Assembly (NCBI GenBank): GCA_900765465.1
Contig: CAAFRM010000366.1
Span: 1 to 51,843 of the forward strand
Source: an uncultured Prevotella sp.
GTDB lineage: Bacteria > Bacteroidota > Bacteroidia > Bacteroidales > Bacteroidaceae
Length of the DNA: 51,843 nt
Direction: 5' to 3'
This document shows, in pieces, positions 7,630 to 51,843 of this stretch (position 1 is the first letter of the stretch; the number at the start of each line of letters is the position of its first letter). The position numbers and the translations under genes were made by a program. Below the pieces are notes generated by a model. The model was not told where the DNA came from. It saw only the letters and a list, made by a program, of their open reading frames with translations, and ran no database searches.

Positions 7630-11553
<3,924 letters not shown>

Positions 11554-39547: not shown

Positions 39548-40492
39548 CTATCTTCTGCCACCGAATGATCCGCCGCCATTATGGCTCTTGCTACGGGAAG
39601 AACCACCTCCAAAGGAACTGCGGGCACCATTGCTGCCTCCGCCAAAGGAACGGCTTCTACTGTTGAATGAACGGCTGTTATTCAACGAATTGCCGCCACG
39701 GTTTCCGCCGAAAGATCCATTGCTTGGAGTGCTGGAACGTGGAGTGAAACCATTATTAAACGAACGGCTGTTGTTGGTAGAGCCACTGCCGAATCCACTT
39801 CGGTTATAACCTCCGAAAGAACCACCGCCACGGACACCACTTCCAAAGGTAGCATTATTTTGGCGACTGTTGCCGAAAGAATGATCACGTGTAACCGTAG
39901 TTCTTGTACTGCTCTGACGATTGAGGTTACCGAACGTCTTGCCACGACCATAATCGCCACGGTTGAATCCATCGCGCATACCGAATCTAGGTTCCTGACC
40001 ACGAACACCGATAGGGCGAGGACCGCCGAACTCACGTCCGTGATACCAGCTTCTGCCACCATTCATTCTCCAGCTGTGTCCACCACGATATACAGCATAG
40101 AAATGAGGTCTTCCGAAGAAGAAGTAATCTCTGCGTGGGTAGCGTGCATAGATGCCGAAGTGGAAGTAACCACCATCCCAGTAAAGAGGACGGTAGAAAT
40201 AGCTTGCGGCACAGAATGAGCGATACTGCCAATCCAGAAGGATATAGCTCAAGTCGAGATTACGCTGACGCCAATAGATGCCGTAGAGATCGTCGTAAGT
40301 ATCTACGCCCATCAGATAGTCGAGGTTCACCTCATAGGCTGCCTCATACTGATCATCTGTCAGATTCAGCTCGTAAGCCATCTTGTCTGTCAGAAACAGA
40401 GCCTGCTGGCGAGCCTGTTCATAACTCATTGCTGATGCAGAAGTGAATGTCATCATGAACATTGCTACTAGTGCTATGATAAACTTCTTCAT
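39548..40492 (-). CDS. Secreted hypothetical protein with G/S/R/N/F low-complexity C-terminus
   Basis: Signal peptide; helical N-domain (ALFLTDKMAYELNLT), aromatic-rich middle and repeated SFG/SFN/RGG tail. Confidence 0.75.
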   Translation of the reverse strand: MKKFIIALVAMFMMTFTSASAMSYEQARQQALFLTDKMAYELNLTDDQYEAAYEVNLDYLMGVDTYDDLYGIYWRQRNLDLSYILLDWQYRSFCAASYFYRPLYWDGGYFHFGIYARYPRRDYFFFGRPHFYAVYRGGHSWRMNGGRSWYHGREFGGPRPIGVRGQEPRFGMRDGFNRGDYGRGKTFGNLNRQSSTRTTVTRDHSFGNSRQNNATFGSGVRGGGSFGGYNRSGFGSGSTNNSRSFNNGFTPRSSTPSNGSFGGNRGGNSLNNSRSFNSRSRSFGGGSNGARSSFGGGSSRSKSHNGGGSFGGRR

Positions 40493-42122: not shown

Positions 42123-43220
42123 ATGAAAAAGAAAGATGATATGACAGGATGGCTCATGAAATGCAGTAGCAGCTGTCTGATATTCATGGGATGCAGTCTG
42201 ATGATTACGGGATTCTGCCTGCTGTTGACAGGATGTACGGAAAAAGCCAAGAAGATGGAAAAGAAGAATATCAAGGTGGAAACAATCTCTGTAGGAAATA
42301 CAAACCTGGGGGGAACGAAAGACTATGTGGGTACCATCGAGGAAAAGATGGGATCAACACTCAGTTTCGAAATCGCCGGAAATATCACTTCCATCCGTGT
42401 AGATGAGGGTGACAGAGTCAGCAAAGGTCAGTTGCTCGCCACCATCAACCCTACTACCGTGAAGGAGGCTCACCGGGCTACCCTCACCACCTTGAAGCAG
42501 GCAGAAGATGCCTACAGGAGATTCCTGCCCCTCCATCAGTCGGGAACCATCTCGGACATGAAATGGGTGGAGATAGAAAGTAAACTGGAACAGGCGAAGG
42601 TAGCCGAAAGCATCGCCCGTCAGCAACTCTCCCACTCTACACTCACCGCTCCGTTTTCTGGCGTCATCGCTGCCAAGAATGTGGATATGGGAACCTACGT
42701 GCTTCCTGGTCAGCCCGTGCTGAAACTCGCCAATGTGGCTCAGGTCAACGCCAAGGTTTCCGTACCCGAAGCTGAAATCTCGCATCTCCACGTAGGCGAC
42801 AAGGTGAAGCTGACGGTTGCCGCTCTTTCAGGAGCCGTCTTCTATGGAACCATCTCAGAAAAAGGCATCGATGCCAATCCTATCTCGCATACCTACGACA
42901 TCAAGGTGGGTATCACCAATCCGCAGGGGCGGCTGCTCCCGGGTATGGTCTGCAACGCCCAGATTCAGGGCAGCGCAGCAGCACCGGCTCATATCATCGT
43001 TCCGCCGCAAAGCGTTGAATTGGATGTAGATAACTCCCGATTCGTTTGGACCGTAGTAAACGGCAAGGCGCACCAGCAACCTGTAACCATAGGCGATTTC
43101 GAGGGAGATGGCATCATCATTCTCTCGGGACTTCATACTGGCGACCAGGTCATCATCAATGGTCAGCAGAAGGTATCAGAAGGTATGAAGGTGGATACCG
43201 GAAAGAGTAACAACCGATAA
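42123..43220 (+). CDS. RND efflux periplasmic adaptor (MFP)
   Basis: Lipobox LTGC; VDEGDRVSKGQLLA, LTAPFSG, LLPGM and GLHTGDQVI; TACCTTTG promoter box at 42090; exact start uncertain. Confidence 0.9.
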   Translation: MKKKDDMTGWLMKCSSSCLIFMGCSLMITGFCLLLTGCTEKAKKMEKKNIKVETISVGNTNLGGTKDYVGTIEEKMGSTLSFEIAGNITSIRVDEGDRVSKGQLLATINPTTVKEAHRATLTTLKQAEDAYRRFLPLHQSGTISDMKWVEIESKLEQAKVAESIARQQLSHSTLTAPFSGVIAAKNVDMGTYVLPGQPVLKLANVAQVNAKVSVPEAEISHLHVGDKVKLTVAALSGAVFYGTISEKGIDANPISHTYDIKVGITNPQGRLLPGMVCNAQIQGSAAAPAHIIVPPQSVELDVDNSRFVWTVVNGKAHQQPVTIGDFEGDGIIILSGLHTGDQVIINGQQKVSEGMKVDTGKSNNR

Positions 43221-43238
43221 AAAGTGGAGGGAAAAGAT

Positions 43239-46200
43239 ATGAATCAAGACAAAAATCAAGATACAAGCAAGCCGAGGATTCCGCAGAAGGACACCGCCCT
43301 TCACGACCATATCAAGGCTCGCATTACGAGAAAACCCAATCGCATCATCAAGCGTTCGTTCATCGAATCGGCGATGTGCAACCATAATATCGTGATGCTC
43401 CTCATGGGTATGCTCGTTTTCGTGGGCATTCTGGGCATCTGCATCATGCCTAAGCAGGAAATGCCGCAATTCACCATCCGCCAGGGTGCCTGCGTTGCCG
43501 TATATCCCGGTGCCACATCCGATGAGGTGGAAGAACGGGTGGCGAAACCCCTGGAGAATTTCATCTTCGGATACAAGGAGGTCAACAAGAAGAAGACCTA
43601 CACCCAGAGCAAGGACGGCATGCTAATCGTATTCCTGGAACTCAACGATGATGTAGAAGACAGGGATGCCTTCTGGAGCAAGTTCAAGCACGGACTGCAG
43701 GCCTTCAAGGCATCACTTCCATCAGGCGTTCTCGCCCTGCAGGCAGTGGACGACATCGCCGATACCTCTGCCCTGCTCATCACGATGGAAAGCAAGCAGA
43801 AAACCTATCGGGAACTGAACACCTACATCGACCGGCTGAAGGACCGCCTGCGCCGCATCGATGCCATCTCCAACCTCCGCACCTACGGACTGGAGAACGA
43901 GCAGATCAGTATCTATCTGGACCAGAACAAGTTGGCTAAATACGGCATCGGTTCCTACAAGGTACTCAACCAGCTCGCCCTACAGGGCTTCACCACCATG
44001 AGTGGAAACCTGGAGCTGGGCAACCTCAACCTGCCTATCCACATCACCGACTCCTACAACAACGAGCGCGATGTGGCAGAGCAGATTGTCTATTCCGACC
44101 CCAAGGGCAACATCGTGCGCCTGAAGGATATTGCCCAGATCAGGAGAGAATATCCCAAATTGAGCAAATACATCAAGAGCAATGGCAACAAATGCGTGCT
44201 CCTCTCCATCGAGATGCGACCGGGCAATGACATCGTGAAGATGGGTAAAGACGTTCACCAGGCGATGGATGAGTTTGAGCAGACCCTGCCCGATGATGTG
44301 CATATCAATACCATCACCGACCAGAGCAAGGTAGTGAGCGAATCAGTGCTCAACTTCCTTCGCGAACTGCTCATCTCGGTCATCTCCGTCATCATCGTGG
44401 TCATCCTGCTTATGCCACGTCGCGTGGCAGAGGTATCCGCCCTCAGCATCCCGATCACCATCTTCTCTTCGGTGGGCATCTTCTATCTTTTCGGTATGGA
44501 ACTGAACACAGTCACCCTGGCTGCCCTCATCGTAACCCTGGGTATGGTGGTGGATGATTCCGTTGTCATTATCGACAACTATATGGAGAAGCTGGGCCAC
44601 GGCATGTCGCGCTGGCATGCAGCCATCGCTGCACCACGCGAGTTTTTCATGTCAGTACTCTCCGCCACGCTCAGCATCTCGCTCACCTTCTTCCCGTTCC
44701 TCTTCACCATGCATGGTGACATGGGCGATTTCGTCAAGTCGTTCCCTTGGGCAATGTTCATCATCCTGAGCATCTCGCTCACGGTTTCGCTGCTGCTTAC
44801 ACCTTATTTACAATATAGGGTGATCCATCAGGGTATTAGCAGTCAGCCTACCCCCAACGCCCGGAAGAAGCCGCTCGATTATCTGCAGATGGGTTACACC
44901 TGGCTGTTGAAGCACTGTTTCTCCAGTCCTCGCATCACCCTCATCGTGGGCGTGGTGCTGGTAAGCATCGGTGCCGTCATCTTCGTGAATCTTCCGCAGC
45001 GAATGATGCCTATCGCCGAGAGAAACCAGTTTGCCGTGGAGTTCTATCTCCCTAACGGAACCACAGCCGATAGAACTGCACAGGTGGCAGATTCGATGGC
45101 TCACATCCTGCAGCGCGACTCGCAGGTAACGGCGGTAACCACGTTTATCGGACAGGGTTCGCCCCGTTTCCATACCACCTACGCTCCGCAGATTGGCGGT
45201 CCCAACTTTGCCCAGTTCATCGTGAATACAGTAGATAACGGTGCCACCGAAGAGGTACTCGACCGATATGCCGACCGCTACTCCAACTACTTCCCGGATT
45301 GCTACATCCGCTTCAAGCAGATGGATTACAACAATGCCAGCTACCCTATCGAAGTAAGAGTGAGCGGCGACAGCATCAGCGATTTGAAGGCTGCCGCCAG
45401 GAAGATAGCCGCCTGCATGCATCAGATAGAAGGTATCAATCTGATCCGCACCAATTTCGAGGAGCCGTTGCCGGGCATCCGGGTTACGCCGGATGCTACC
45501 GAGGCCAACCGTCTGGGTGTAAACAAGACGCTGCTCTCTGCCGATCTTGCCATTCATTTTGGCGATGGCATTCCGATGTCCACCCTATGGGAAGGCGATT
45601 ATCCGGTGAAGATGGTACTGAAGTCGGAGAACGACAGCGACCTTGCCAACGAATACATCCCTGTGATGGGCGGAACATCGAGTGTGCCGCTCCGTCAGCT
45701 GGCTAAGATTTCTCCCGACTGGCACGATGGCTGCATCGTCCGACGCAATGGCATACGCACCATTTCCATCGTCGGTGAACCGTTGAGAGGTTATAATGCC
45801 AACCAGTTGTCCAACAAGCTGAAAGAGGAAATATCGAAACTCCCGCTCGGTACCGATCTGGATTGGGAGATTGGCGGTATGGCAGAAAAGGATGGTGAAA
45901 CCATGCCACAGGTGATATCGGGTGTGCTGATAGCGGTATTGATCATCTTCTTCATTCTGCTCTTCCATTTCAAGCGCATCAGCCTGGCTCTGGTGAATCT
46001 CTCCTCCATGTCGCTCTGCATCTTCGGTGCTGCGATAGGACTTCTGATTACCGGCTTCGATGTCAGCATCACCTGTATTCTGGGTGTCGTGAGTCTGATG
46101 GGTATTCTGGTAAGAAACGGTATCATCATGCTCGATTATGCCGAGGAACTTCGCCGCGACAAGGAACTTTCGGTAAGAGATGCCGCCTTCCAGGCTGGTG

Positions 46201-46424
46201 AGCGCCGTATGCGTCCTATCTTCCTCACCTCAGCAGCAGCTTCGGTAGGCGTATTGCCGATGATGATAGAGAACAACACGTTATGGTCGCCGATGGGAGC
46301 CGTCATCTTCTTCGGAACCCTTATCTCGATGGTGCTCATCGCCACCATCCTTCCTGTGCTCTATTGGATTGTATTCGATAAGCACGGAAAGTATAGCTTG
46401 AGGAAAAAGACATCCTGTGAATAA
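43239..46424 (+). CDS. RND efflux permease (AcrB/CusA family)
   Basis: YPGA...EVE, GMVVDDSVV, GILVRNGI and RMRPIFLT; two-repeat 12-TM architecture; alternative GTG start at 43224. Confidence 0.92.
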   Translation: MNQDKNQDTSKPRIPQKDTALHDHIKARITRKPNRIIKRSFIESAMCNHNIVMLLMGMLVFVGILGICIMPKQEMPQFTIRQGACVAVYPGATSDEVEERVAKPLENFIFGYKEVNKKKTYTQSKDGMLIVFLELNDDVEDRDAFWSKFKHGLQAFKASLPSGVLALQAVDDIADTSALLITMESKQKTYRELNTYIDRLKDRLRRIDAISNLRTYGLENEQISIYLDQNKLAKYGIGSYKVLNQLALQGFTTMSGNLELGNLNLPIHITDSYNNERDVAEQIVYSDPKGNIVRLKDIAQIRREYPKLSKYIKSNGNKCVLLSIEMRPGNDIVKMGKDVHQAMDEFEQTLPDDVHINTITDQSKVVSESVLNFLRELLISVISVIIVVILLMPRRVAEVSALSIPITIFSSVGIFYLFGMELNTVTLAALIVTLGMVVDDSVVIIDNYMEKLGHGMSRWHAAIAAPREFFMSVLSATLSISLTFFPFLFTMHGDMGDFVKSFPWAMFIILSISLTVSLLLTPYLQYRVIHQGISSQPTPNARKKPLDYLQMGYTWLLKHCFSSPRITLIVGVVLVSIGAVIFVNLPQRMMPIAERNQFAVEFYLPNGTTADRTAQVADSMAHILQRDSQVTAVTTFIGQGSPRFHTTYAPQIGGPNFAQFIVNTVDNGATEEVLDRYADRYSNYFPDCYIRFKQMDYNNASYPIEVRVSGDSISDLKAAARKIAACMHQIEGINLIRTNFEEPLPGIRVTPDATEANRLGVNKTLLSADLAIHFGDGIPMSTLWEGDYPVKMVLKSENDSDLANEYIPVMGGTSSVPLRQLAKISPDWHDGCIVRRNGIRTISIVGEPLRGYNANQLSNKLKEEISKLPLGTDLDWEIGGMAEKDGETMPQVISGVLIAVLIIFFILLFHFKRISLALVNLSSMSLCIFGAAIGLLITGFDVSITCILGVVSLMGILVRNGIIMLDYAEELRRDKELSVRDAAFQAGERRMRPIFLTSAAASVGVLPMMIENNTLWSPMGAVIFFGTLISMVLIATILPVLYWIVFDKHGKYSLRKKTSCE

Positions 46425-46438
46425 GCAGTAAGTATTTT

Positions 46439-46594
46439 TTTAGGTCACGCAGATTTCGCAGATTACGCAGATTTTGAGACCTATGCGGTCTATGAATAGT
46501 CCCCTAGCCCGAACAGGGCAAAAAAAATCTGCGTCATCTGCGAAATCTGCGTGACCTAAATTTCCCCCAGCCCGAACAGGGCAAAAGAAATCTG
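46439..46594. repeat. Composite inverted/direct repeat element (REP/MITE-like)
   Basis: 37-bp arms (46439-46475 and 46524-46560) with 1 mismatch; 31-bp direct repeat CCCC(T/C)AGCCCGAACAGGGCAAAA(A/G)AAATCTG at 46501 and 46564. Confidence 0.85.
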
Positions 46595-46601
46595 TGAGCC
46601 C

Positions 46602-46871
46602 CTATACCTTATCCCCAAACGATGCACGGATAAGTTTCTCTCTAATATCCGGATAAACATCTTCTGAAAAATAGCCTTTCAAGCCATCCACGATTCTCAC
46701 GTAAATAGCGTGGTTATACACTTCCTTACCTTTTCTGACTCCCGTAAGGTACTTTGGACCCAGCTGAATGTTGGCTGCGAACTCTGCGCAGTTAATCTCA
46801 TTGTCATGCATGATCTGGCGCAATGTTTTGCCAAATAAATGCATGTCAATGTCAATTTTACTTTTGTACAT
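46602..46871 (-). CDS. Small XRE/Cro-like HTH protein
   Basis: FGKTLRQIMHDNEINCAEFAANIQLGPKYLTGVRKG fits the XRE HTH pattern; divergent from the primase gene. Confidence 0.6.
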   Translation of the reverse strand: MYKSKIDIDMHLFGKTLRQIMHDNEINCAEFAANIQLGPKYLTGVRKGKEVYNHAIYVRIVDGLKGYFSEDVYPDIREKLIRASFGDKV

Positions 46872-46910
46872 TGTTAAATTAATTTAATGTTTTAAAAATC
46901 TATACTTGAA

Positions 46911-46957
46911 GATTCCCACTATGGGAATCGACCTTTCAGTCCTTTTTTGTAACTTTG
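46911..46957 (+). promoter_or_regulatory. Palindromic operator and -7 promoter box of the primase-helicase gene
   Basis: GATTCCCA-CTA-TGGGAATC perfect inverted repeat at 46911-46929; TAACTTTG at 46950-46957. Confidence 0.6.
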
Positions 46958-47045
46958 CGATATGAAACCAGCGAGATACTGACTATCCCCAACTCCTTTC
47001 ACTCAATCATGTAAACGGAACAATCCGCTTTACCAACAATAGTAA

Positions 47046-49160
47046 ATGATAAAAATGAAGCAACTAGTATCACAATTCGCAAACATGACCAGCAAGACTC
47101 CCATACTGGGAGACCTCGAAAGCCTGGTTTCATTTATGAAAACCGATGAGAGACTCAAGTTCCTCACCCAATCCTACCGCCAAACCGGCAAGAAAACCTT
47201 TAAGGCAGATGCGCCCCTCTTTGCCCCAGCCTGCCACCTCGAAGGAGGCAAGGGCCAGGACAACATCCGGGAACTCACCCACCTATCTCTCGTAGATTTC
47301 GATGAGCTCTTCCCCGAAGTGCCTCCCGATATCACGGCTCTCAACGCCCTGAAGCAGAAGCTCTGCGCCGATCCGCACACCCTACTCTGCTACATCACGA
47401 TGAGCGGCAACGGTATCCGAGTCATCTATCCCTATCTCGGAGATGACTACCCCGCCGCCTTCGCCAAGGGCAATGACTACTATCAGCAGCTCATTGGCAA
47501 AAAAGCTGACTTTCAATGCAAGAACGTCAACCGGCTCAGTGGACTCGCCTACGATCCCGATGCATACTACAATTCCGATGCTATCTCTTTCTCAGCCGAA
47601 GAAATCTCCCTATTCCATACCGAGACAACTAAGAAGAATCAGAAACAGAAGAAACTGGAACACATCAACACCTACTACGAGCAACTCATCAAGCCGAAAC
47701 TAGACAACGACAAGATTATTTATCAGCCAAACAAACACAATAACTATGTGATGAGAGTGGGCTATATGCTCGCCAGGAAGCGCTATGCCCATACCAACGT
47801 TCTGGAATGGGCACTCCAGAAATATCCCGAATACGACGGCGTGGAGCAGGTCATCAAGTCCTGCTACGACAACACCCCCGGTGCCTCCAGAAAGGCATCT
47901 GGAGGAGGCGGAAATGGCGGCAGTGACAACCGCTTCGCATCGGTCGATGAAATCAGAAATTTTCTCGATGGTCATATCCGTCTCCGATACAATCTCATCA
48001 CGCAGCGATACGAGTTTCTGGAAATCCCAGAAGGCGCCTCTCTATCTTCCGACAAGCCGCCACGATGGCAGATACTCCTCGACCGTCACGTCAACTCGCT
48101 CTGGACCAAGATGTCGCTCACGGTGAAGGTAAATAAGTTGGATATGCGCAATGTCATCGAGAGCGATTATACGCCCGTATTCAATCCCTTCGAGGATTAT
48201 TTCGCCCATCTCCCGCCCTGGAAGGAGGGCGACAAGGACTACATCGCCGAACTCGCTGCCACCGTGAAGGTGAAGGATACCGACAGCTCCGTGCTGAGCT
48301 TCGAGGAATGCCTGAAAAAGTGGCTCGTGGCAATGATTGCAGGTTGGCTGGACGAAGAGGCGGTCAACAATGTCATCCTGGTCTATATCGGAAAACAGGG
48401 TGCCAACAAGACCACCTGGTTCAATCATCTCCTTCCGCTGGAGCTGAAGCAGTACTTCTACACGAAGACTAATGCCAAGCGAATGACGAAGGATGACCTC
48501 ATCGCCCTCTCGCAGTACGCCCTCATCTGCTGCGAGGAGCTGGATACGATGTCGGCATCAGAGATGAACCAGCTGAAGGCTGCGGTGACGATGCAGTATA
48601 TCAACGAGCGAGCTGCCTATGCCCACTATGCCGAGCAGCGCAAGCACATCAACAGTTTCTGCGGCACGGGCAACAATCCTGAGTTTCTGAACGATCCTAC
48701 GGGTACCCGCCGCTGGCTGCCTTTCGAGGTAGAGAGCATCGTCTCCCCCCGCCAGCATCCCTTCAATCATCCCGGCATCTATGCCCAGGCTTACGCCCTC
48801 TACAAGAGCGGCTACCGCTACTGGTTTACGGATGAAGAGATAGAGCGGCAGAACCGGCACAACAGCAAATTCGAGACGCCACGCCTCGAACAGGAACTGG
48901 TGGATCTCTACTTCCGGAAGCCTTCGGAGGGAGAGACAGGGGAGTTTGTGTCCGTTGCCCGGGCGATGCAGATCATCGGCTGCAACATCACTCAGAAGCT
49001 GAGCAGCCAGAAGATTGGCAAGGCATTCAGCGACCTGGATTTCAAGAGGTTTCGCAATACAAGATGCCGTGGTTTCATCGCCATCATCCGTACGGCTGAA
49101 GAGATCAGAAACTATCAGATTTCCCTGGGAATCGATGCCAGCAGCAACCTTCCGTTCTGA
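47046..49160 (+). CDS. VirE/VapE-type primase-helicase (BT4734-like N-domain plus P-loop ATPase)
   Basis: N-terminal LVDFDEL, TMSGNGIRV and DFQCKNVNRL (prim-pol-like); Walker A variant GKQGANKTT, Walker B ICCEEL, GTGN, DPTGTRRW; winged-helix-like C-terminus. Confidence 0.82.
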   Translation: MIKMKQLVSQFANMTSKTPILGDLESLVSFMKTDERLKFLTQSYRQTGKKTFKADAPLFAPACHLEGGKGQDNIRELTHLSLVDFDELFPEVPPDITALNALKQKLCADPHTLLCYITMSGNGIRVIYPYLGDDYPAAFAKGNDYYQQLIGKKADFQCKNVNRLSGLAYDPDAYYNSDAISFSAEEISLFHTETTKKNQKQKKLEHINTYYEQLIKPKLDNDKIIYQPNKHNNYVMRVGYMLARKRYAHTNVLEWALQKYPEYDGVEQVIKSCYDNTPGASRKASGGGGNGGSDNRFASVDEIRNFLDGHIRLRYNLITQRYEFLEIPEGASLSSDKPPRWQILLDRHVNSLWTKMSLTVKVNKLDMRNVIESDYTPVFNPFEDYFAHLPPWKEGDKDYIAELAATVKVKDTDSSVLSFEECLKKWLVAMIAGWLDEEAVNNVILVYIGKQGANKTTWFNHLLPLELKQYFYTKTNAKRMTKDDLIALSQYALICCEELDTMSASEMNQLKAAVTMQYINERAAYAHYAEQRKHINSFCGTGNNPEFLNDPTGTRRWLPFEVESIVSPRQHPFNHPGIYAQAYALYKSGYRYWFTDEEIERQNRHNSKFETPRLEQELVDLYFRKPSEGETGEFVSVARAMQIIGCNITQKLSSQKIGKAFSDLDFKRFRNTRCRGFIAIIRTAEEIRNYQISLGIDASSNLPF

Positions 49161-49167
49161 TGCCGTT

Positions 49168-49311
49168 TATGACACTATGACACTTATGACACTTGTTTTC
49201 TAAAACTTTCCTCACGCGGGCGGGCAGGAAAAATTTTCCAGAAAGGCCTCCCGCCCGCCTACGTGAGAGAGATTTCAAGAAAAGCCTGTCATAAGTGTCA
49301 TAAGTGTCATA
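49168..49311. repeat. ~145-bp imperfect palindrome with triple TATGACAC at each end
   Basis: Left arm TATGACACTATGACACTTATGACAC...CTCACGCGGGCGGGCAGG; right arm reverse complement TATGACACTTATGACACTTATGACAG...CTCACGTAGGCGGGCGGGAGG. Confidence 0.88.
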
Positions 49312-49330
49312 CCGGAGCAAAAAATCTCCA

Positions 49331-49418
49331 GCATCCTAAGTAAGTCACTCAGGCATCCTAAGCAAGTCACTTACAGCTCGTAAGTAAGTCACTTAGGCAT
49401 CGTAAACAAGTCACTTTT
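49331..49418. repeat. Four 22-bp direct repeats (iteron-like)
   Basis: GCATCCTAAGTAAGTCACTCAG / GCATCCTAAGCAAGTCACTTAC / AGCTCGTAAGTAAGTCACTTAG / GCATCGTAAACAAGTCACTTTT. Confidence 0.9.
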
Positions 49419-49432
49419 AAATTTCAATCAAT

Positions 49433-49642
49433 ATGGAACAGAAATGTTATTCCAAGCAAGAGTTAGCTCTTGAGTATTTCCCTGATGCCACACCCGAAGT
49501 GGCAAGTGCCCATCTCAGAAGATGGATCAACCGCTGCAAGCCTCTCCACGATGCTCTGGTGAAGAGCGGCTACACCAAATGGTCGAAGGAATTCAGTCCG
49601 ATACAGGTAGCCCACATCTTCGACTATCTGGGCGAGCCATAG
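49433..49642 (+). CDS. DUF4248 domain protein
   Basis: YSKQELALEYFP...A...LRRWI...L...GY...FSPIQV..IFDYLGEP is the characteristic family pattern. Confidence 0.85.
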   Translation: MEQKCYSKQELALEYFPDATPEVASAHLRRWINRCKPLHDALVKSGYTKWSKEFSPIQVAHIFDYLGEP

Positions 49643-49680
49643 GAAGAAAATCATTCTTCCGGGCTTATCTTCAGAAAAAG

Positions 49681-49730
49681 ACGTGAAAATCAGTGAGAAA
49701 CCGTGAGTAAACGTGAGAAACCGTGAATGG
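49681..49730 (+). repeat. Five 10-bp tandem units with a GTGA core
   Basis: GTGA at 49683, 49693, 49703, 49713 and 49723, just upstream of the TATCTTTG promoter box at 49747-49754. Confidence 0.85.
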
Positions 49731-49827
49731 CGGATTCTGAATGTTGTATCTTTGCATTGTGATTCAGAAAGAACCACGGGCAATGCGCAGCGCCGATTAA
49801 CTTTAATAATTTAACCATTTAAACGTT

Positions 49828-50427
49828 ATGATCAGAATTGTCTTATACCAGAACACGAACCAGAAGATTGCCGAAGCTTACGGCAAATGGTTTCCACGAG
49901 TAGTATCCGATGAAACCATCGGACTCGAAGAGCTCGCCGCTCACATGGCTAGCCACAACACCCCTTACAGCAAGGGTGCCATCCTCGGTATGCTGACCGA
50001 TGCAGCAGCCTGCACCAAGGAGTTGCTCCTCTTGGGTAAGAATGTGAAGTTTGCCGACATCGCCATTTTCTCCCTCGGACTGAAGGTGAAGGGCGGTGCA
50101 CCTACCAAGGAGAACTACAACGTGGCGAAGTACATTTTGGGGCTGAAGTTGAGAGCCAGAGCCACTGGCGAGCTCAAGACCGAGAATCTTGACACCTCTA
50201 TCAAGCTCATCAATCTGGCAGCTCCTGCAACGGAGAATCCGGGGAATTCGGAGAATCCGGATGATGCCGGCAAGGACAACCCATCAGGTGGTGGCAGCCA
50301 GACTACCGGAGGTGGTGGTGGCAGCCAGACTGGTGGCGGTGGCAACACCGATAACACCCAGCAGGGTGGCGGCGGAACCACGGATAGCGGTTCTACAGAA
50401 GAAGGTGGCGACAACGTAAATTTTTAG
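49828..50427 (+). CDS. HU/IHF-like (HU-HIG type) DNA-binding protein with Gly-rich tail
   Basis: YGKWFPR, IGLEELAAHMASHNTPYSKGAI, LLLGKNVKFADIAIFSL; disordered acidic G/S/T tail. Confidence 0.82.
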   Translation: MIRIVLYQNTNQKIAEAYGKWFPRVVSDETIGLEELAAHMASHNTPYSKGAILGMLTDAAACTKELLLLGKNVKFADIAIFSLGLKVKGGAPTKENYNVAKYILGLKLRARATGELKTENLDTSIKLINLAAPATENPGNSENPDDAGKDNPSGGGSQTTGGGGGSQTGGGGNTDNTQQGGGGTTDSGSTEEGGDNVNF

Positions 50428-50598
50428 CCGAGAATCGTAAAATCTGAAAGAAGGGAGCCGTATGGCGTCAGGGGCATTCCGAGAGCATCAAGAGGCAGGA
50501 ATCATCTGCAACATTCATCAAAAGCAAGCTCTGCACGGGTGCCTGGGTTATAGGGGTTCATTCTTAGGATATCTCCCTGGTTATGAACTTTTTAGTTG

Positions 50599-50664
50599 AA
50601 TCAAGTTTTAGTAAATCAAGTATTAGTAAAGTCAATTTTTAGTAAATCAATTTTTAGTAAATCA
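50599..50664. repeat. 15-bp tandem repeat x4
   Basis: AATCAAGTTTTAGTA, AATCAAGTATTAGTA, AAGTCAATTTTTAGTA, AATCAATTTTTAGTA. Confidence 0.85.
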
Positions 50665-50671
50665 TCAGACC

Positions 50672-50770
50672 ATGAGAAAAGAAACCATCAAGAAGATCAT
50701 CAATCTTATCATCACAGTACTTACCGCCATCGCTTCTGCCGTCTGCGTGCAGAGCTGCAAGGGATTGTAA
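50672..50770 (+). CDS. Smalltalk family peptide (32 aa; below the ORF-track cutoff)
   Basis: MRKETIKKIINLIITVLTAIASAVCVQSCKGL: basic N-terminus, hydrophobic helix and VQSC end; lies between the HU-like gene and the amidase. Confidence 0.85.
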   Translation: MRKETIKKIINLIITVLTAIASAVCVQSCKGL

Positions 50771-50785
50771 TGAATCCCGCATCAG

Positions 50786-50827
50786 TATTCAGAAATCGTT
50801 ATTCAGAAATCGTTATTCAGTAATCAT
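50786..50827. repeat. 14-bp tandem repeat x3
   Basis: TATTCAGAAATCGT x2 plus TATTCAGTAATCAT. Confidence 0.85.
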
Positions 50828-50842
50828 TAACAAGAGTTGCCT

Positions 50843-51277
50843 ATGATCAAGAACAGAAAGATCAATTTAATCGTCATCCACTGCAGTGCCACCCGAGTCA
50901 CCCAGGACTTCACGGTAGGCGAATTGGAGGCGTGTCATTTAGCCCGTGGTTTCCGTGACATCGGTTATCACTATTACATCACGAAGGACGGAGTGATTTA
51001 TCCGTGCCGTCCGGAGTCGGAGCCTGGCGCTCATGCCCGTCATTACAACGCCCACAGCATCGGCATCTGTTACGAGGGTGGTCTGGATGCCGAAGCCCGT
51101 CCTGCCGACACCCGCACGCCAGCCCAGAAGGCTGCGATGAGAGAGCTTCTGAAGAGCCTCTGTACCGACTATCCTGAAGCCGAGATCCTGGGTCATAGAG
51201 ATCTCCCTGGCGTTCACAAGGAGTGTCCATGTTTCGATGTCAAGAAGTGGCTTTCCAACATCCATTTCCACATATAA
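50843..51277 (+). CDS. N-acetylmuramoyl-L-alanine amidase (Amidase_2, T7 lysozyme-like)
   Basis: IVIHCSAT, IGYHYYI, GAHARHYN, SIGICYEGG, GHRD and KECPCFD; no signal peptide. Confidence 0.92.
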   Translation: MIKNRKINLIVIHCSATRVTQDFTVGELEACHLARGFRDIGYHYYITKDGVIYPCRPESEPGAHARHYNAHSIGICYEGGLDAEARPADTRTPAQKAAMRELLKSLCTDYPEAEILGHRDLPGVHKECPCFDVKKWLSNIHFHI

Positions 51278-51303
51278 TTTTCCGTACTCATCTCTCTTTC
51301 CTC

Positions 51304-51337
51304 CCCCAATCTTATGTCCCCGCACATAAGGTTGGGG
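51304..51337 (+). terminator. Hairpin terminator after the amidase
   Basis: CCCCAATCTTATGT...ACATAAGGTTGGGG 14-bp stem with one G.U pair. Confidence 0.7.
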
Positions 51338-51705: not shown

Positions 51706-51843
51706 ATGATGAATATAAATTTTTTCAGAATGCTGCTCATGACATTCCTCGCCATGGCAGGACTGGCTGCTTGTAGCGATGATGATGAGCCTAAAGATTC
51801 AGTCAAAGAAATCAGGATGCTGGTGTCGGCAGAAACAGGCGTG
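51706..51843 (+). CDS. Lipoprotein, N-terminal part only (possibly DUF4377 family)
   Basis: MMNINFFRMLLMTFLAMAGLAAC-SDDDEP lipobox; frame stays open to the window end. Confidence 0.65.
   Translation, partial: MMNINFFRMLLMTFLAMAGLAACSDDDEPKDSVKEIRMLVSAETGV

Follow-up and report, generated by a model that had tools for sequence, protein, structure and literature searches.

A putative satellite-derived replication and lysis module at fixed chromosomal sites of gut Prevotella-group bacteria, with a predicted initiator-origin pair and variable defence cargo

We analysed a 51,843-nucleotide stretch of DNA (the window) that is the entire contig C366 (CAAFRM010000366.1) of a 60% complete genome of an uncultured Prevotella sp. 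(GCA_900765465.1). Near its right end, at 46602-51337, lies a compact module encoding an XRE-like regulator, a VirE-type primase-helicase, DUF4248, an HU-HIG protein, the membrane peptide smalltalk and a T7-lysozyme-type amidase. We propose, with a probability of roughly 45%, that this module is a grounded, satellite-derived and integrase-free unit that would replicate in place when induced, lyse the cell and feed the exchange of its cargo. Its anatomy, the low ratios of nonsynonymous to synonymous substitution (dN/dS), the fixed and empty sites, the match between initiator and iterons, and the turnover of cargo were observed directly. Profile, repeat and fold scans recovered every part that an earlier annotation made from the letters alone (the sequence-only reading) had placed in the module. 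That reading was silent on the module being a multi-copy unit with an interchangeable replication cassette and bordering defence slots, and on its neighbourhood being already in print.

The VirE gene (47046..49160, forward strand) encodes a 704-aa BT4734-type protein with a BT4734-like_N and a VapE-like domain, 96% identical to the VirE of a Segatella copri record. Its archaeo-eukaryotic primase (AEP) domain matched PF08800 with 87.6 bits (cut-off 22.4), and D84 and D86 of the DxD motif I were invariant in 14 sequences. The candidate segment for motif II is SGNGIR, with S120, G123 and R125 invariant and its register relative to the published motif not fixed; in BT4734-like AEP primases, lysine replaces histidine in motif II (PMC11724360). 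The Walker A motif of the VapE-like ATPase spans G449 to T457. In a structure model with a mean predicted local distance difference test score (pLDDT) of 79.5, residues 633-681 form a helix-helix-hairpin, a predicted C-terminal winged helix whose wing hairpin is at 667-681. The top match of this model in the PDB was PriRep1 (7PDS, E 5e-12) of a Staphylococcus aureus pathogenicity island (SaPI). SaPI Reps recognise short iterons through their C-terminal winged helix, and these iterons are placed directly after rep in opposite directions (Qiao 2022, PMC9371898); VirE domains have been predicted to be helicases of mobile elements (Kazlauskas 2018).

Directly after VirE, at 49168..49311, we found a predicted replication origin made of 3+3 TATGACAC-type iterons in opposite directions around an inner palindrome, the palindrome arms being 49168-49192 and 49287-49311 (fold z -11.3). 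A palindrome plus iterons had been noted before; both are present, but the true iterons are heptamers inside the palindrome arms and the 22-bp array further downstream is a separate element. When an origin was called on the SaPI layout (directly after rep, at least 2 iterons per side, opposite directions; PMC9371898), such a region followed VirE in 72 of 81 loci, compared with 51 of 400 control stretches; of the 9 loci without a call, 3 were ended by contig edges. SaPI origins have an AT-rich core; here the core is AT-rich in L027, L052, L055 and L032, while the window copy has a palindrome that is GC-rich and includes a short A/T tract. Because the modelled fold is like that of a SaPI PriRep helicase, the layout is of the SaPI type and the initiator matches its iterons (see below), the interpretation of this region as a local replication origin is well supported, and the origin part of the earlier proposal of a regulated local replication origin holds. 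The likeness of the modelled VirE to SaPI PriRep, with an inverted-iteron origin following, is new.

VirE is further tied to this region by a single residue of the wing. Among 69 loci (9 without origin call and 3 unclassified being excluded; 43 loci after dereplication), arginine at position 670 was found with TG-type iterons in 47 of 47 loci (TGAC 43, TGGC 4), threonine with ATAC in 12 of 13 (GAAC in the other one), and lysine with GG-type iterons in 9 of 9 (GGAC 8, GGTC 1). Column 670 was top-ranked among VirE positions 420-699 for tracking the iteron word. On a helicase-core tree built without the wing, residue 670 and the iteron class change 12 times each. The match extends to finer detail, since within the TGAC class the wing TKHS accompanies GGTGAC iterons both in the clade of the window copy and in the S. 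copri clade, two clades that are about 70% identical and differ in sequence from wing to origin. For a held-out locus (L039), the iteron word was predicted from the wing and then confirmed. This tracking of the iteron word by one wing residue of the VirE C-terminal winged helix is also new, and it suggests that VirE and the origin are maintained as a matched pair.

These data bear on a reading in which the module is two loosely linked units with host roles: HU, smalltalk and amidase would serve in cell-wall remodelling or cell-cell exchange, the replicon would be a decaying relic refreshed by gene conversion, and cargo would gather at an insertion-tolerant site. Truncated VirE copies and origin-only remnants do exist, and most XRE copies carry an internal stop. 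However, VirE keeps intact motifs at a dN/dS of 0.14-0.17, and a dead origin would not be expected to remain matched to its initiator through about 12 switches. The right arm does behave as a separate piece in some respects, having its own promoter box, following four different replication cassettes and lying up to 13 kb from VirE. Yet it is almost always found behind some replication cassette and DUF4248, in the same order, and we consider this account quite unlikely.

The module belongs to a multi-copy family. A VirE match at E <1e-60 was present in 74 of 301 genomes of the genus, and each of five near-complete genomes held 1-10 DUF4248, 6-15 VapE-like, 2-11 Amidase_2 and 11-18 smalltalk matches; the genome of the window itself has five further amidase matches, four further DUF4248 and one second, shorter open reading frame (ORF) of the VirE family. 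At least one of the four downstream genes was found in 44 of 53 loci with at least 2.5 kb of downstream sequence, a lower bound from single-query tblastn. The arm led by DUF4248 was found, besides after VirE, after a Rep3-type initiator (C186 of the same genome, L070), after an unnamed ORF and a CHC2 primase (C219, L077, L086, L093) and after AAA_25 and DUF6371 (L088, L095); a DUF3987 label for the C219 gene was not confirmed by Pfam. The module is thus one version of a family plan with an interchangeable replicon; that one downstream arm is joined to four replication cassettes is likewise new. Near-identical module copies occur within one genome (G010). Two copies adjoining the atp operon (L029, L074) have the order HU-amidase-smalltalk and a VirE 47% and 28% identical to that of the window, which suggests replicon exchange at an old site. 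In G119, two module copies (L050, L051), one with a deleted VirE, have their left and right halves joined to different flanks, as expected from recombination between copies, and this exchange of flanks is likely a chromosomal rearrangement between them. Origin-only derivatives, which have lost most of VirE, keep the operator, the promoter, the origin and the 22-bp repeats; they are neighbours of a polysaccharide locus in three genomes of the S. copri clade (L193-L195, at about 8600-9400) and of ffh and groES in G007. The origin-only elements include those at 7500-8050 in L030, 5600-6050 in L031 and 7200-7330 in L032, the last with an origin directly after rho. Such mini-elements are candidates for firing in trans.

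Pfam scans of the 42 ORFs of the window detected neither an integrase, transposase or relaxase nor a terminase, capsid, tail or other packaging family; within this genome, the search for particle and packaging genes covered these ORFs only. This agrees with the earlier statement that the window lacks such mobility and particle genes. PF00589 had no match on C366 and matched on three other contigs. Since the contig ends 506 bp past the module terminator, the absence of an integrase further out rests on relatives: none was found throughout the complete G048 island, between uvrA and XRE in G217 and G145, or among 26 ORFs scanned over 40 kb of downstream sequence in G422. In L034, by contrast, the amidase is followed by an element with three integrases. 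Most module copies are neither part of a larger integrase-bearing element nor pseudogenised, two of the findings that the sequence-only reading had named as speaking against its proposal.

Selection on the module was assessed from pairwise comparisons. dN/dS was mostly 0.03-0.25 across the five rightward genes; in the window clade, VirE had 0.14-0.16, HU 0.04-0.24 and the amidase 0.07-0.13, while smalltalk had at most 0.14 and DUF4248 at most 0.24; in the S. copri clade it was 0.17 for VirE, 0.01 for DUF4248 and 0.25 for XRE. The comparison of dN/dS and synteny that had been suggested thus gave low values in all six genes and a housekeeping-like dS at a fixed site, VirE having a dS of 0.082 and the neighbouring uvrA 0.100 in the S. 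copri clade. There, the module follows uvrA in 9 genomes and precedes DUF1573 in 6, and in all 6 of the other genomes that were checked (the genome of the window, G010, G044, G251, G058 and G007) uvrA directly adjoins DUF1573, which indicates that the module was inserted once and then inherited. The low dN/dS and these fixed and empty sites are new as well. The search for attachment (att) sites that had also been suggested gave nothing: comparing filled with empty uvrA-DUF1573 junctions by eye, we saw no terminal repeat, att-like repeat or target duplication. Within the window clade, acrB precedes the module in G010, G044, G251, G422 and G424, and the module occupies another site in G423. Its dS there (0.08-0.49) is somewhat above that of acrB (0.06-0.10), which indicates allele exchange. 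acrB was rejected as an empty-site test, since genomes with the module have the gene that follows acrB in empty ones at a different place, and the context of acrAB itself varies.

A non-autonomous mobile satellite, similar to a phage-inducible chromosomal island (PICI) with an outsourced integrase, would instead use a recombinase acting in trans for excision and integration and a helper phage for packaging. Several paralogous loci per genome, filled and empty sites, the near-identical copies in G010, a window-type copy elsewhere in G423, and the weak likeness of the DUF4248 model to Xis, TerS and Rpp DNA-binding domains all fit this view. A distant relative also fits it, a 13.7-kb viral-collection contig with a terminal repeat (L198, 1-13743) that carries an integrase, a Sak4-like gene, a VirE-family ORF (31% identity), an SbcC-like gene and a methylase, and which we take to be a distant integrating relative of the module. 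However, the uvrA-DUF1573 junctions bear no visible repeat or duplication, the dS at the fixed site matches that of housekeeping genes, and no close relative was found in viral contigs, phages or plasmids, the best identity being 36%. A single-protein query found no relative in the viral contigs, and an alignment query found 6 distant loci, of which the 4 inspected held no other module gene; the smalltalk pattern scan of these contigs was empty, and phages and plasmids gave VirE matches of at most 34% identity only. We regard mobility in trans as improbable, to about the same degree as the two-unit account. Contig depths, which give no copy number, were 166-174 for the module and 170-183 for its flank in X1, 5.3-7.4 and about 7.5 in X5, 10.7-11.2 and 10.5-14.6 in X11, and 66-67 and 56 in the isolate run X6.

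The DNA around the conserved genes turns over. We observed three slots, one outside XRE, one between DUF4248 and HU and one past the terminator, where the DNA varies even among close relatives. The gap between DUF4248 and HU measures 2.8-13.1 kb in six genomes and holds different systems. The cargo includes type I restriction-modification (RM), GmrSD, McrBC, AbiD, Septu, a DISARM-like operon, PDC-S01, PDC-S02 and PDC-M07, as well as toxin-antitoxin pairs, insertion sequence elements, surface proteins and polysaccharide genes. A further new observation is that the defence systems found in these slots, which lie both within the module and next to it, differ from one genome to another. In G010, a Septu cassette lies between the amidase and a second copy of the last 58 amidase codons with the terminator, and the sequence after this repeat is cargo 98% identical to that directly following the amidase in G422. 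In L022, L055 and L042, part of the 3' end of the amidase or DUF4248 gene is repeated beyond cargo. Such gene-end repeats fit an entry of cargo by recombination through module sequence. AraC-LRR genes, considered as a right anchor of the module, were rejected because they were shown to be cargo. In the window, a lipoprotein gene starts at 51706-51843 (forward strand) in low-GC DNA after the terminator, is ended by the contig edge and is likely the cargo of this genome.

A cargo made largely of defence systems also fits an abortive-infection or suicide module, in which in-place replication upon infection would raise the dose of the module and its defence cargo, followed by early lysis with an incidental release of DNA. 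The anatomy would be the same as in our proposal, N-terminal domains of the VirE type are present in a number of defence contexts (PMC11724360), and the PADLOC models for PrimPol and for reverse transcriptase-associated VirE match VirE. The amidase and HU, however, matched no PADLOC model at E 1e-10, and abortive infection alone leaves unexplained why almost every genome has a different cargo at one site and why partial gene ends are repeated beyond it. This reading is unlikely, if the least unlikely of the three alternatives.

The right arm carries the predicted lysis functions. The Amidase_2 protein (50837..51277, forward strand) matched T7 lysozyme at E 1.9e-28 and has no hydrophobic N-terminus or signal peptide, which bears out its first description as a signal-less T7-type amidase; it is 47-48% identical to Bacteroides phage amidases. 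Its H15, Y44, H120, K128 and C130 align with T7 lysozyme residues that we take to be the metal-binding and catalytic ones. The smalltalk/DUF6486 peptide (50672..50770, forward strand; 32 aa, C-terminal VQSC-KGL) matched NF033879 with 36.2 bits (cut-off 24.7), is shorter than 35 aa and has a peak hydropathy of 2.18. Its relatives occur in six microvirus records with 58-68% identity, and in one of these (L214, MG945436.1) we noted at 1501-1587 an unannotated relative overlapping the end of the microvirus peptidase gene; these relatives favour a role in lysis. The Ser-Cys end of smalltalk was found in 7 of 7 aligned copies, a conservation taken from alignment A3, since the pattern-based collection required the cysteine. 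G073 holds eight stand-alone smalltalk copies of equal score, a pattern that would suit a dispersed repeat or a family resembling type I toxins.

Upstream of these two genes, the HU-HIG protein (49828..50427, forward strand; 199 aa, glycine-rich tail) is repeatedly found between DUF4248 and smalltalk/amidase. HU-HIG proteins with glycine-rich tails form a lineage-specific Bacteroidetes expansion, for which a role in conflict with invading DNA was proposed and DNA binding by one subclade doubted (Burroughs 2017, PMC5499826). The available part of that paper reports almost no conserved operon links, whereas here the gene recurs in this position. The DNA condenser of the sequence-only reading is thus a putative role. 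DUF4248 (49433..49642, forward strand; 69 aa) had no Foldseek match for its fold; its model (pLDDT 87) was weakly similar to MerR, Xis, BldC, TerS and Rpp-type DNA-binding domains (Z at most 3.6). The 22-bp direct repeat before it (x3.9, 49331..49416, forward strand) retains its period in many relatives with a different word, and may be a binding site for DUF4248.

On the left side, the XRE/HTH_3-like regulator (46602..46871, reverse strand; 89 aa) is divergent from VirE. Its Pfam match was weak (HTH_73, E 0.05), and the nearest named Atlas clusters were HTH_3 at 0.94. Between the two genes lie an operator-like palindrome with the core TTCCC-N5-GGGAA (46911..46929) and a TAnnTTTG box (46950..46957, forward strand), which we take to be the Bacteroidales -7 promoter consensus; a second such box before HU (49747..49754, forward strand) is predicted to be a separate promoter for the HU-smalltalk-amidase arm. 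The palindrome is common to the window clade and the S. copri clade, in which the XRE alleles are 30-46% identical. A host regulon for this operator was rejected, as it is not enriched genome-wide. It differs from two Bacteroidetes SOS boxes, the regulators of which were reported absent from Bacteroidales (PMC8565304). The reading frames had been described as intact; this is the case for the window copy but not for most of its relatives, for codon 46 of XRE (46734-46736 in the window) is a stop in 21 of 26 copies (TAA 17, TGA 4) and arginine in four, the window copy included. The 26 copies were not deduplicated and include L021, L038, L117, L119 and L039-L051. Over 23 codons scored after this stop, pN/pS was 0.22 as against 0.66-2.6 in opposite-strand frames, so the frame evolves like a protein and read-through or re-initiation is possible.

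Put together, the module might work as follows. Repression at the palindromic operator would keep the VirE promoter silent until a signal arrives, likely phage infection or DNA damage. The VirE winged helix would then, very probably, read the iterons, and its hexamer would load and prime. As there is no integrase or att site, forks would probably enter the chromosome on either side, so that the module and its cargo gain in copy number, and smalltalk and amidase would probably go on to lyse the cell. The DNA released, or packaged by a helper phage, could perhaps recombine, by way of the conserved arms, at the corresponding locus in relatives, so that cargo is replaced or stacked.

Several results weigh against this proposal. 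All four downstream genes lay within about 3 kb in 15 of 53 loci (again a lower bound from single-query tblastn). The iteron classes were defined only after inspection of the data; tests on independent pairs across supported branches were concordant in 3 of 3 cases (p 0.25) and about 5 of 5 (p 0.06), neither being significant; and wing and origin are only about 150 bp apart, so linkage accounts for part of their match. Orphan origins sometimes differ in iteron type from their genome's main VirE (G048). Neither the 42 window ORFs nor the module genes include a packaging or capsid gene. Four genomes of the S. copri clade have a tyrosine recombinase about 1 kb from XRE, within a type I RM hsdS cluster of which it is probably the invertase, and one Rep3-type copy has an integrase at a distance of about 5 kb. 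The module must clearly have reached new sites in the past, yet no insertion mechanism was found. Finally, smalltalk ends in a lipobox-like motif, resembling a lipoprotein signal, that is not typical of holins, and it is often found alone, outnumbering the amidases (11-18 against 2-11 per genome). Because of this Ser-Cys end and its frequent occurrence alone, a classical holin role is not established; the holin-like/endolysin pair proposed earlier has indirect support from the phage-like amidase and the microvirus relatives, and is weakened by these traits of smalltalk.

Parts of this neighbourhood are already in print. Xu 2007 (PMC1892571) described in gut Bacteroidetes multi-copy T7-lysozyme blocks of two to five genes, 1-10 per genome and often at polysaccharide loci, which were called putative phage. 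These blocks are very likely the family of the module; in the available part of the paper they are treated as inserted phage, and primase-helicase, origin, selection and defence cargo are not named. Sberro 2018 (bioRxiv 10.1101/494179) reported a small-protein family (#350024) in which a DNA-binding protein, a membrane peptide of about 33 aa and an amidase adjoin, often with VirE nearby. Crosstalk, secretion or channel formation was proposed for it and VirE was taken as virulence-related, with no replicon or hotspot in the part available. The earlier remark that these families co-occur in Bacteroidales with no assigned function is therefore accurate in that, as far as these sources go, the neighbourhood is published without a tested function. 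Our literature search, with most subscription papers outside its coverage, returned no paper treating the module as a replicon or hotspot.

Among known systems, SaPIs and other PICIs carry their own integrase with att sites at the ends, and a divergent repressor with an excisionase-like gene. The module resembles them in its fused primase-helicase with a predicted C-terminal winged helix and in the inverted iterons after that gene (Qiao 2022, PMC9371898); its divergent XRE-like gene, stop-interrupted in most relatives, and its small, possibly Xis-like DUF4248 gene may be counterparts of their repressor and excisionase genes. It differs in having no integrase, att or packaging genes that we could find, in its fixed chromosomal sites, its T7-type amidase, its BT4734-type AEP primase and, in the window copy, its GC-rich origin core. 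Antiviral hotspots of P4 and P2 likewise have small defence slots of fast turnover between conserved satellite genes (Rousset 2022, PMC9122126), and the module shows this trait, having a defence locus of varying content flanked by two of its conserved genes. Defence islands that travel by lateral transduction are similar in their defence slots (Kuang 2026, PMC12829572), and for both systems exchange by homologous recombination was proposed, as we do here. However, those elements integrate, excise and are packaged, while the module is fixed and would need to replicate in place; the second P4-type trait, an excising cos-packaged satellite, had no counterpart, as no integrase or packaging family was present among the module genes. 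Bartonella's gene transfer agent (BaGTA), which shows run-off replication, also has a chromosomal, phage-derived origin with primase and helix-turn-helix repressor genes, linked to lysis and to a transfer biased to nearby DNA (Quebatte 2017, PMC5496983). It differs in having capsid and tail genes and one conserved locus, where the module has no particle gene that we found and several lineage-specific loci per genome. In its design the module is thus like a PICI replicon joined to a P4-type defence hotspot, but it is neither a PICI, lacking integrase, att and packaging genes, nor a gene transfer agent, lacking particle genes. No gene transfer agent in this phylum turned up in the literature searched.

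The remaining elements of the module are a 10-bp repeat (x4.5) at 49682..49726 and a 15-bp AT-rich repeat (x4.9) before smalltalk at 50590..50664, both on the forward strand, a 14-bp repeat (x3.1) before the amidase at 50786-50829, and a terminator hairpin at 51304..51337 (forward strand; fold z -4.9) that forms the right boundary. The rest of C366 is ordinary chromosome with recN, dnaN, and sugar and transport genes by Pfam. A long imperfect inverted repeat between acrB and XRE (46439-46560, fold z -13.7) was rejected as a module end, similar repeats on C86 and C150 marking it as a dispersed element resembling repetitive extragenic palindromes. The acrA-acrB pair (42123-46424) has no adjoining gene for an outer-membrane partner and changes its context between genomes (L079, L080, L212, L213); G058 has a remnant of VirE about 4 kb downstream of acrA-acrB, and in G423 the module has no acrA-acrB adjoining. 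At 39548-40492 (reverse strand), a 314-aa secreted-looking protein with a long Gly/Ser/Arg-rich tail had no Pfam match.

Modules of this kind are common among gut Bacteroidales and, although on record since 2007, had not been explained. In a wider picture, rather unlikely in its entirety, each Bacteroidales chromosome would hold several capsid-free, domesticated satellite stations that amplify and burst. Their iteron word would be set largely by one wing residue, defence and surface-polysaccharide genes would be copied in place, orphan origins would be fired in trans and DNA would be released by lysis for the swapping of cargo; the internal stop of XRE may add a switch. The conserved arms are anchors for mining untried anti-phage genes in Prevotella/Segatella, and the wing-iteron table is a predictive initiator-origin code that could supply compatible replicons where genetic tools are few. 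If exchange is driven by in-place amplification and lysis, this would explain the turnover of chromosomal defence and capsule loci in this phylum.

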